From NCBI RefSeq assembly GCF_003334305.1, contig NZ_QOWS01000019.1: DNA of 64,000 nt. One strand, 5' to 3'. A program made the translations under genes and the position numbers. The notes under the pieces are model-generated. The model worked only from the letters and a program-made list of their open reading frames with translations. It searched no databases and was not told where the DNA came from. Origin of the DNA: Escherichia coli. Lineage in GTDB: Bacteria > Pseudomonadota > Gammaproteobacteria > Enterobacterales > Enterobacteriaceae. This document shows positions 40,250 to 41,690 of this stretch, one piece after another; the stretch's first letter is position 1, and each line of letters begins with the position of its first letter.

Positions 40250-41690
40250 CCGGGCCGTGGCACAGCCTCTCTGCTGGCAGAACAGCGTACTGCAGAAGTC
40301 GTCGTACTGCCGCTGGTCCCGGCATCAGGTCTGCCCGCAGATGGCACTTCTGCCACTGATCTGCCGGTGGAGCTGAACGGCATGACATATCAGGCCTGCC
40401 GTGGGGATTTTGTGGTGCGCCTCGACGGCAGCACCTGTCTGCAGTTATAGAATAAAGAAGGCGGGGAGGTACGCAGGGAGGGCGATCCGCTGGAAGTGGC
40501 GTAGTGGCTGTAGGCCTGTAATGATGCAGGAATAGAAGTTCGTGTACAGGTTAATGAAAGCATCACCCCGTAAAAACATGCCGGCACGGTTTACACATCA
40601 TTCCATGGTGGCAGCCGGTTAACTTTCCTGCGCCACCAGTGGAAAGAGGCCATGAGCAGTCCGAACAAAAAACCACTCGTGATACTTATAATAATGGCCT
40701 CACCTGCTACCATTCCTGACGGCCCCCAGTACATAAACCACATTGCACATCCCCAGGAAATACCCCATAAGCCCCCCATCAGCAGCGTAACCTGCCAGAA
40801 CGGCATAAAGGGCAATGGCGGAAGCCGGATACCCAGCCGCCAGAGAATACGCAGCAGAGGAGGAGCATAATTACTCCGCCACATCTTTTTGCTGTCCATC
40901 AGGGCAATTGCCCGGGCTTTTTTTGCTCAAAAGTCACAGGAGCACCTCCGTTCCATGATGTAAACGTGACACAACTTATTGTTATTGATTATTATTATCA
41001 TACCGTGATTATGTTGTCATGCACCTGTACACTGATAAAAGAAAGGGAGAACAGGAGGCTGGCTGAACAACCAATCCGTTCGTCCAGTTCAATGGCGGCT
41101 ATCAGGTTCTGCTCCGCAATGTACTCACGAATGCGCTTCCTGTCCTGGCTGGCCAGCATGGTCCAGAATATCTCCATCATTTACCGGCGACTTTCCTGCT
41201 CATTTCATCCCGCCATGCAGCAGCGGAAGATTCGACCATGTCATGGGGAAGCACATCGCCGCGCTCGAGTTGCTGACGTCCTGCCTCAACCTGGTCACGG
41301 AACCAGGTATTATGCTGCCGTTCCACGGTCTGGCGCATAAAATCCCGGATTAACTGAGAGCCATTACGGTCCATGCTTTTTGCAGGGCCATAAAAGCATC
41401 CTTCAGTTCAGCGTCAATTCTTAAACTCATATTAACCTGTGCCATTTATCACCCCGTCATTACCACGTATATACACAGTATATAACGATTCAGATATCGT
41501 CACTAGGATATGCCGCGCCAGCGGCATGGAAGGCGGCACTCCGCTGTTTCATATGATACCGCCGAAGCCCGATGTAAGCCGCTACAGTCGTCCGAAAGTC
41601 ACCAGCCTCCTCCCCCCTGCCGTCATCCGTGCATCAGCTATGCACTGAGTATGCCTGCCCTTCCCTAGAGAATCCTGCTAGGCTTGCCAC
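40250..41690. repeat. Degenerate segmental duplicate of 48890-49640, 53110-53640 and a short piece of 52125-52190
   Basis: Direct sequence comparison: a decayed 3' copy of the 48644-49234 gene with stop codons and a deletion; a variant of the small membrane protein gene (40591-40899); truncated RelE-like and antitoxin fragments (40998-41374); and a short piece matching the exonuclease 3' end. Confidence 0.6.

Follow-up and report, generated by a model that had tools for sequence, protein, structure and literature searches.

The window is the whole 64,000-nucleotide stretch of Escherichia coli DNA that was analysed. Its 18-kb part from 38000 to 56000 is 99.9-100% identical to pECOS88/pS88 and to dozens of related plasmids in a PLSDB search, and the plasmid is a ColV-ColIa IncFIB/FII virulence plasmid of the pS88/pECOS88 type. 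In the annotated gene order of pS88, iroN precedes ssbL, which is followed by the stretch 40218-41698, cvaA and cvaB (+ strand), cvaC and cvi (- strand), degenerate sugar/oxidoreductase genes, ydfA and ydeA (+), ybaA (-), imm (+), then cia, yacC, yacB and yacA (-), and RepFIIA. The ORF list of the pS88 transcriptome study (PMC3438092) includes yacA, yacB, yacC, cia, imm, ybaA, ydeA and ydfA; the string "duplicat" is absent from its text. The RefSeq record of pS88 already annotates the ssbL-cvaA spacer with another yacA and another DUF6404 gene, along with two pseudogenes, a truncated yacB and a frameshifted hypothetical one. We refer to the spacer stretch as copy 1 and to the region from ydfA to yacA as copy 2. 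The parts of copy 1, with the preceding ssbL, are:

38997-40031, - strand: ssbL, DAHP synthase gene
40218-40577, + strand: ydeA', pseudogene remnant that represents codons 72-196 of copy-2 ydeA, which encodes 196 aa
40591-40937, - strand: ybaA copy 1, encoding a DUF6404 small membrane protein, delimited by alignment
40938-41051: ybaA-imm intergenic remnant, which holds the imm ribosome-binding region
41052-41180, - strand: yacB', RelE/StbE-family toxin gene, codons 1-43 only (RefSeq: "incomplete, missing C-terminus")
41177-41445, - strand: yacA copy 1, RelB-like antitoxin gene, frameshifted in the window and intact in pS88
41446-41611: yacA upstream region of the copy-1 type, which has lost 11 nt that copy 2 retains; the resemblance to copy 2 stops at 41585
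41612-41698, - strand: yacC'', scrap comprising about codons 232-262 of a DEDDh 3'-5' exonuclease gene; it contains a stop and shares 78-88% identity with yacC genes

The ColV block of the window stops at about 47532, inside a truncated FAD-oxidoreductase gene, and the IncI-type block with which copy 2 starts begins at about 48287-48288, after an acyltransferase fragment:

47531-47643: IS200C end fragment, right after the ColV block
47640-48324: acyltransferase fragment
48387-48647, + strand: ydfA
48644-49234, + strand: ydeA, intact, 196 aa
49254-49511, - strand: ybaA copy 2, 85 aa
49640-49975, + strand: imm, colicin Ia immunity gene, missing from copy 1
49997-51877, - strand: cia, colicin Ia gene, missing from copy 1
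52063-52911, - strand: yacC, intact, encoding a 282-aa DnaQ-like DEDDh 3'-5' exonuclease
52957-53238, - strand: yacB
53235-53504, - strand: yacA, with an upstream region that reaches 53655 and adjoins RepFIIA

Comparison of the window with itself by BLAST gave four direct-orientation matches for 40218-41698, and no others that involve this stretch:

40218-40643 with 48857-49306: 85.1% identity over 450 columns, E 3e-147
40722-41041 with 49295-49615: 93.8% identity, E 2e-137
41052-41585 with 53110-53655: 94.9% identity, E 0
41614-41665 with 52128-52178: 88.5% identity, E 2e-10

The fourth match grows to about 41612-41698, at 78-80% identity, when yacC of other plasmids is used for comparison. 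Taken together, the counterparts of the four pieces span 48857-49615, 53110-53655 and 52128-52200, at 78-95% identity. Base-level alignments and tblastn indicate that the matches are gene-for-gene homologies, which comprise the final two-thirds of ydeA, ybaA and the sequence upstream of it, yacB codons 1-43, the whole of yacA and its own upstream sequence, and the internal yacC scrap. The preliminary description had presented the stretch as a mosaic of sequences that recur in the ColIa/RepFIIA region. The four matches bear this out, with coordinates correct to within about 30 nt, and the imm-cia-exonuclease block of copy 2 does lie between parts that are adjacent in copy 1. Low-complexity or chance similarity is ruled out by the E-values and the protein-level homology. 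The repeat is thus real and was correctly described; "segmental duplication", if taken to mean a copy that arose in situ, is the wrong label, as the copies differ by 5-15% and copy 1 is present alone in ColIa-negative ColV plasmids. The term "scrambled" holds for the yacC'' scrap of about 85 nt, which goes with the left end of the ColV operon, and not for the rest.

Each copy carries lesions of its own, as the preliminary description had stated. In copy 1, the ydeA' remnant has a 22-nt deletion at 40270/40271 between GGCAGAACAG repeats and three stop codons, and RefSeq labels it in pS88 as [quoted passage not shown]. Full-length YbaA has 115 aa and a GTG start preceded by GGAGG, and a full-length homologue (L003, 115 aa) matches positions 1-114 of the 115-position Pfam model DUF6404 (PF19942; E 7e-37). 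The start of this gene had been described as frameshifted in the first copy, and it is: a 1-nt deletion in the run 40918-40925 shifts the frame at codons 5-7, so that residues 1-13 are out of frame and the remaining ORF (40591-40899) encodes 102 aa from Met14. The intergenic remnant contains a Fur-box-like site at 40981-40999 and ends in a deletion junction at about 41043-41052 with CAGG microhomology; imm, the colicin gene, yacC and the 3' end of yacB are absent past this junction. In yacA a 1-nt deletion at 41385/41386 occurs in the window, pAPEC-O2-211A-ColV and pEND_Eco14033-1, and is absent from pS88. In copy 2, ybaA has an internal in-frame deletion, as had been noted, the size of which is 90 nt and hence 30 codons (aa 73-102) rather than the 31 first given; its junction is at 49294/49295, and it lies between imperfect direct repeats TTCCTG.CG.CC.CCAGT.

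We found no terminal inverted or direct repeats at 40218/41698 and no transposase ORF within the stretch. Rfam families are likewise absent from it, the only hits in 38-57 kb being CopA (55362-55453) and AS-pc02 (56440-56622). A mobile element or integron cassette was rejected on these grounds; the boundaries are simple breakpoints, one of them with CAGG. The word cassette had been used for what is the backbone ORF ydeA, which is accompanied by neither integron nor IS features. An inverted repeat (40542-40570/41004-41032, 76% complementary) flanks ybaA and looks like a product of chance.

By gene order and homology, both copies are evidently versions of a common IncI/IncF module, ydfA-ydeA, ybaA, imm, cia, yacC, yacB, yacA. 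Copy 2 is collinear with pKBSW16i-B, pSTM709 and IncFII plasmids, and because the order is the same in these plasmids it represents the standard module with colicin Ia. Copy 1 is collinear too, except that it has one internal deletion and is truncated on the left. Copy 2 has its nearest relatives among IncFII and IncI/K plasmids and is composite, IncI-like in its left part to about 52020 and IncFII-like in its right part from about 52017, a breakpoint common to many plasmids. YdeA had no NCBIfam match, and Pfam gave a weak AbiEi_4 match alone (E 0.057). The yacA and yacB genes of copy 2 overlap by 4 nt; YacB scores 31.8 bits against the NCBIfam RelE/StbE cut-off of 27.9, while YacA scores 24.7 bits, below the RelB/DinJ cut-off of 45.65. 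The two are predicted to form a type II RelE/RelB-like toxin-antitoxin pair.

We consider it probable that copy 1 is a decayed older relic, that copy 2, inherited separately, is a version of the module that still works, and that the repeats recombine with each other. The ancestor of copy 1 would have been a version of the module with a colicin I-type gene block. A single illegitimate deletion at CAGG would have removed everything from the start codon of imm through codon 44 of yacB, and the left side would have been cut inside ydeA, where the iro-ssbL block now begins. Frameshifts and stop codons would have accumulated later. Copy 1 now travels with the ColV virulence region, of which it is a constant component lying between two Fur-regulated promoters, those of ssbL and cvaA; copy 2 (48287-53655) would have joined its replicon when the ColV/iro block fused with a ColIa plasmid. 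This order of events is what the arrangement of the sequences suggests.

In its match to the IncI plasmid pSTM709, the ybaA side of copy 1 runs through the ybaA-imm intergenic region to about 5 nt from the start of imm; it then enters yacB at codon 43/44. Both parental sequences have CAGG at the junction (about 49633|53107). On pRHB13-C13_3, next to a ColV remnant, a full yacB and codons 1-203 of yacC are joined to the cvaA promoter, the yacC'' scrap and a yacA upstream region of the copy-1 type. This plasmid has the arrangement expected of a less-deleted relative of copy 1. Because the ybaA side reaches the start of imm and pRHB13-C13_3 keeps yacB and yacC, copy 1 appears to derive from a colicin-containing version. 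The IncFII plasmid NZ_CP104504 lacks the colicin block and reads ydfA-ydeA-ybaA-yacB-yacA-repA. It was rejected as the source of copy 1, because its ybaA-yacB junction corresponds to window 49581|52940 and not to about 49633|53107; this colicin-less order could nevertheless be the primitive state, into which the colicin block was inserted later.

Copy 1 (at least 80% of 40032-42055) is present in 280 PLSDB plasmids, compared with 74 that carry the full two-copy layout, and in 322 of 5426 complete E. coli genomes. In pAPEC-O2-211A-ColV it occurs alone, at 99.8% identity and in a single place in the record, with no ColIa module; the FAD-oxidoreductase gene is full length in that plasmid, whereas it is truncated at about 47532 in the window. 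Variable sites upstream of yacA place copy 1 beside pRHB13-C13_3 and copy 2 among IncFII plasmids. The 5-15% divergence, the occurrence of copy 1 alone and the different nearest relatives therefore indicate that the copies were separately inherited.

The yacC'' scrap appears to have a history of its own. It abuts the cvaA promoter region, and relative to yacA it is on the opposite side from where the canonical order would put yacC. A ColV-like operon on pUTAK-21-2, 95% identical to the window from 41625 onward, is preceded by the same scrap, which is directly abutted by a 264-nt cia fragment in canonical order and orientation. Given this arrangement, the scrap moves together with the ColV operon, at its left end, and is probably a third, still older relic, left by an earlier cia-yacC unit beside that operon.

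Under a rival account, a segment ydeA-ybaA...yacB-yacA was duplicated in situ and then diverged and rearranged, the colicin Ia block being inserted into, or kept in, one copy. The direct orientation and mostly conserved order of the pieces are what such a duplication would leave, and the yacB'-yacA core has no substitutions between the copies. This account is nevertheless very unlikely: the flanks show 5-15% divergence, against 0.2% or less in the rest of the plasmid family, ColIa-negative ColV plasmids have copy 1 without copy 2, the yacA upstream sites place the copies with different relatives, and no plasmid outside the two-copy family matches yacCBA of copy 2 better than 98.2%.

The substitution-free core itself extends over 41101-41453 and 53159-53512, with one 1-nt indel in 354 columns, and its flanks differ by about 8-16% between the copies. 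Only about 5-7 substitutions would be expected in this tract, and the probability of finding none is roughly 0.001-0.007. Other IncFII yacAB sequences depart from copy 2 at 7-16 of the 354 columns; the nearest of them there, NZ_OZ001713 (L014), has 7 differences in the tract and none in the following 188 nt. Between copy 1 and L004, its nearest relative in the flank, the tract holds 4 differences. The pattern suggests gene conversion between the copies, although shared ancestry combined with purifying selection on yacA could account for it instead. The deletion at 41385/41386, present in the window and pAPEC-O2-211A-ColV and absent from pS88, complicates any simple conversion story.

Deletions by homologous recombination between direct repeats occur on plasmids, for example between IS copies. 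The two chimeras expected from crossovers between the repeats of the window were constructed and used as PLSDB queries. The yacA-tract chimera was matched in one piece at 99.9% by NZ_CP126949 (pEND_Eco14033-1, from an APEC O78 strain), which has the order iroN-ssbL-ybaA-yacB'-yacA-RepFIIA. This plasmid is collinear with the window to about 41420 and again from about 53480, and its markers change from copy-1 to copy-2 type between 41385 and 41454, placing the crossover at 41386-41453. It lacks 12,059 bp, which include both bacteriocin systems (ColV and ColIa). The ybaA chimera was matched at 99.5% by NZ_CP141197 (pEc673-1), in which the markers switch between 40932 and 40974 (crossover 40933-40973). 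Here 8,574 bp including the ColV operon are missing and imm-cia-yacCBA is kept; pEc673-1 is a reduced, non-mobilizable plasmid of 89 kb with a disrupted cia. The repeats have the same orientation, each product lacks the DNA between them, and both crossovers fall inside homology. On this evidence from plasmid sequences, the direct repeats, 8-12 kb apart, do appear to recombine and to delete bacteriocin genes, and both predicted products exist in nature. RecA is presumably involved in these deletions.

In principle, the two plasmids could also be ancestral single-copy states or assembly collapses. If the single-copy plasmids were ancestral, the two-copy layout would have arisen by Campbell-type integration of a circular ColV segment into a ColIa plasmid. 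Such an integration is structurally the mirror image of the deletion, so the chimeric repeats of NZ_CP126949 and NZ_CP141197, with crossovers inside homology, would be expected either way, and entry of the ColV operon and other genes into ColIa plasmids is on record in the literature, as later papers relate it. The chances of this reading are nonetheless poor. Across the chimeric queries one record was found per single-copy type at 99% or more, against 74-118 two-copy plasmids; pEc673-1, at 89 kb, is reduced and non-mobilizable and has a disrupted cia; and NZ_CP126938, from the same accession series as NZ_CP126949, has the full layout. Moreover, copy 1 and ColV occur intact without ColIa, so copy 1 was not made by such an integration.

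A further alternative, to which we give very little credence, is that copy 1 is retained for a function, with YacA acting in anti-addiction, YbaA compensating for the deleted copy, or the stretch serving as a spacer or insulator between divergent Fur-regulated promoters. Hundreds of plasmids carry copy 1 almost unchanged (99.8-100%). This near-invariance is not evidence of selection, because the whole recently spread plasmid family is equally invariant. The yacA of copy 1 is intact in pS88, where it encodes the same protein as copy 2, but it is frameshifted in the window, pAPEC-O2-211A-ColV and pEND_Eco14033-1. The ybaA of copy 1 keeps aa 73-102, which copy 2 has lost, and a Fur-like box precedes both ybaA copies; the gene has, however, lost its start and first 13 codons. 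The stretch 40218-41698 is best described as probable non-functional relic DNA, a label that falls short of proof for every part, since RefSeq calls the 102-aa ORF of ybaA intact and ORF 118 of pS88, which may correspond to one of the parts, is expressed.

An assembly artefact, whether a repeat collapse or a chimeric join, has nothing but the presence of repeats in its favour and can practically be dismissed, as comparison with other plasmids places at least 80% of the 18-kb two-copy layout, at 99.5% identity or more, in 74 independently assembled complete PLSDB plasmids, including the Sanger-era pECOS88, and the 5-15% divergence outside one 354-bp tract makes assembly unambiguous.

The preferred reading, of a relic and a separately inherited working version that recombine, describes standard plasmid mosaicism, and all components are already annotated in public records. 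Only three points are modestly new: that copy 1 can be read as a relic from which the colicin genes were deleted, that one tract was probably converted, and that two natural plasmids represent repeat-mediated deletions; the current understanding of plasmid evolution is unchanged by these results. It is chiefly for annotation and for plasmid typing that they are of use. The spacer of 1.5 kb between ssbL and cvaA should be read as pseudogene debris (ydeA', ybaA', yacB', yacA(')', yacC'') with no regulatory or coding novelty, and paired yacA and ybaA hits on pS88-type plasmids are not paralogues that arose in situ. In the repeats there is a concrete mechanism for the natural loss of ColV alone (8.6 kb) or of ColV and ColIa together (12.1 kb) from otherwise intact virulence plasmids, which is relevant to schemes that define "ColV plasmids" by gene content.

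A wider proposal would combine three elements: that the repeats make the bacteriocins facultative at an appreciable rate, that conversion keeps the substrate for this recombination, and that the linkage of ColV with colicin I-type modules arose at least two or three times. We regard this combination as rather unlikely. If it were true, ColV-negative or ColV/ColIa-negative segregants would keep the iron-uptake virulence genes, and part of the pool of "ColV-like" virulence plasmids without colicin V would be explained. The separate linkages (yacC'' scrap with cia' in pUTAK-21-2, copy 1, copy 2) would then hint at a preferred landing zone adjacent to the replicon.

Several known systems resemble the arrangement in the window. 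The colicin Ia/Ib regions of IncI1, IncI-gamma/K and IncB/O plasmids have a gene order and orientation identical to those of the module: the IncI-gamma/K1 ColIa plasmid pKBSW16i-B (NZ_CP110262) carries ydfA-ydeA-ybaA(115 aa)-imm-cia-yagA, and the IncI ColIb plasmid pSTM709 (HG428759) has the same order with cib. The IncI/K regions are 96-97% identical to copy 2 from ydfA to the cia promoter (up to 52020), and about 89% identical to copy 1 from ydeA codon 72 to the imm ribosome-binding site. They differ from the window in what follows cia, which is yagA and a ProQ/FinO-family gene in the IncI/K plasmids and the IncFII-type yacC-yacB-yacA in the window. In addition, ybaA is full length (115 aa) in the IncI/K plasmids but damaged in both window copies, and the colicin genes that they keep are wholly lost from copy 1. 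The IncFII plasmids pET6.2-IncFII (NZ_CP043219), pS159-1 and NZ_OZ001713 carry repA-ori-yacA-yacB-yacC, 97-98% identical to copy 2, in one copy and with unrelated cargo beyond 52017; in the window, unlike these plasmids, yacCBA has been joined to the colicin Ia module, and 12 kb away there is another copy, which is truncated.

Integration of the ColV operon, along with several further genes, into ColIa plasmids has been described (Jeziorowski & Gordon, J Bacteriol 2007, cited in PMC2995468). As outlined in the citing papers, this ColV-Ia scheme, in which ColV, iro and iss entered ColIa plasmids, agrees with the layout of the window and accounts for the presence of the ColV and ColIa blocks on one IncF replicon, where two versions of one backbone module could thereby meet; those papers credit it neither with a relic colicin module beside cvaA nor with repeat-mediated loss of bacteriocins. 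Such loss resembles the deletions between IS-type repeats: direct repeats, here of 320-550 bp, give derivatives that lack exactly the flanked segment. Unlike IS copies, the repeats of the window are diverged backbone remnants, and one of the crossovers took place in a 41-bp identical stretch within DNA that is 94% identical.

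Nineteen-nucleotide sequences with three or fewer mismatches to GATAATGATAATCATTATC were scored as Fur-box-like sites, and 13 were found in the window vs 0.02 expected. Matches to this sequence include:

40081-40099, Fur-box-like site
40981-40999, Fur-box-like site
41736-41754, Fur-box-like site
46163-46181, Fur-box-like site
49555-49573, Fur-box-like site
51988-52006, Fur-box-like site
25960-25978, Fur-box-like site
28166-28190, Fur-box-like site

Such sites are present in the promoters of ssbL, cvaA, cvi/cvaC and cia, and one lies upstream of each ybaA gene, both that of copy 1 (the decayed module relic in the ssbL-cvaA spacer) and that of copy 2 (the colicin Ia module beside RepFIIA). 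In plasmid pS88 these genes are reported to be induced in an iron-dependent manner (PMC3438092), and the placement of the predicted sites agrees with this.

The 3' end of ybaA (40553-40670, 118 nt) also matches E. coli chromosomes at 91–93% identity, in 2241 places among complete genomes. Since some of these are annotated as a DUF6404 family protein, a chromosomal ybaA homologue or remnant is widespread.

The frameshift in yacA of copy 1 is a 1-nt deletion at 41385/41386 that is present in the window, in pAPEC-O2-211A-ColV (a ColV plasmid without the ColIa module) and in pEND_Eco14033-1 (a plasmid lacking the DNA between the repeats). It is absent from pS88, in which the copy 1 and copy 2 YacA proteins are identical; short-patch conversion may have repaired the gene, or the sequencing may account for the discrepancy.

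Multiple plasmids share a breakpoint at 52017-52021. On the cia side, homology to IncI/K ColIa/Ib plasmids stops there, and those plasmids continue with yagA; on the yacC side, homology to many IncFII plasmids begins there. This suggests that the position, which lies upstream of the cia promoter and just past the downstream end of yacC, is a recurrent recombination point.

The ColV and ColIa blocks are separated by junk sequence (47300-48450), comprising:

ending at about 47532, truncated FAD-oxidoreductase gene, full length in pAPEC-O2-211A-ColV
47531-47643, IS200C end fragment, 113 nt
47640-48324, acyltransferase fragment

Other repeats and RNAs in the window are:

20593-20738 and 23493-23638, direct repeat, 146 nt, 90%
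17258-17397 and 25876-25740, inverted repeat, 140 nt, 76%
2962-3026 and 4541-4570, palindromes, one a perfect 30-mer
55362-55453, CopA antisense RNA, RepFIIA copy-number control (Rfam match)
56440-56622, AS-pc02, antisense to pHK01_099 (Rfam match)

The repeats and palindromes are unrelated to the copy 1/copy 2 repeat, and the two RNAs are expected in an IncFII replicon.

A diverged ColV-like operon is found in plasmid pUTAK-21-2 (CP157125, 4748-9300). It encodes a transporter named MchF (99.6% identity, AMRFinderPlus), a "colicin V family bacteriocin" and cvi. In front of it lie a fragment of cia and the yacC scrap known from window 41612-41698. Its other flank carries genes for a ProQ/FinO protein and a serine acetyltransferase, and a different RelE/Phd pair adjoining RepFIIA.
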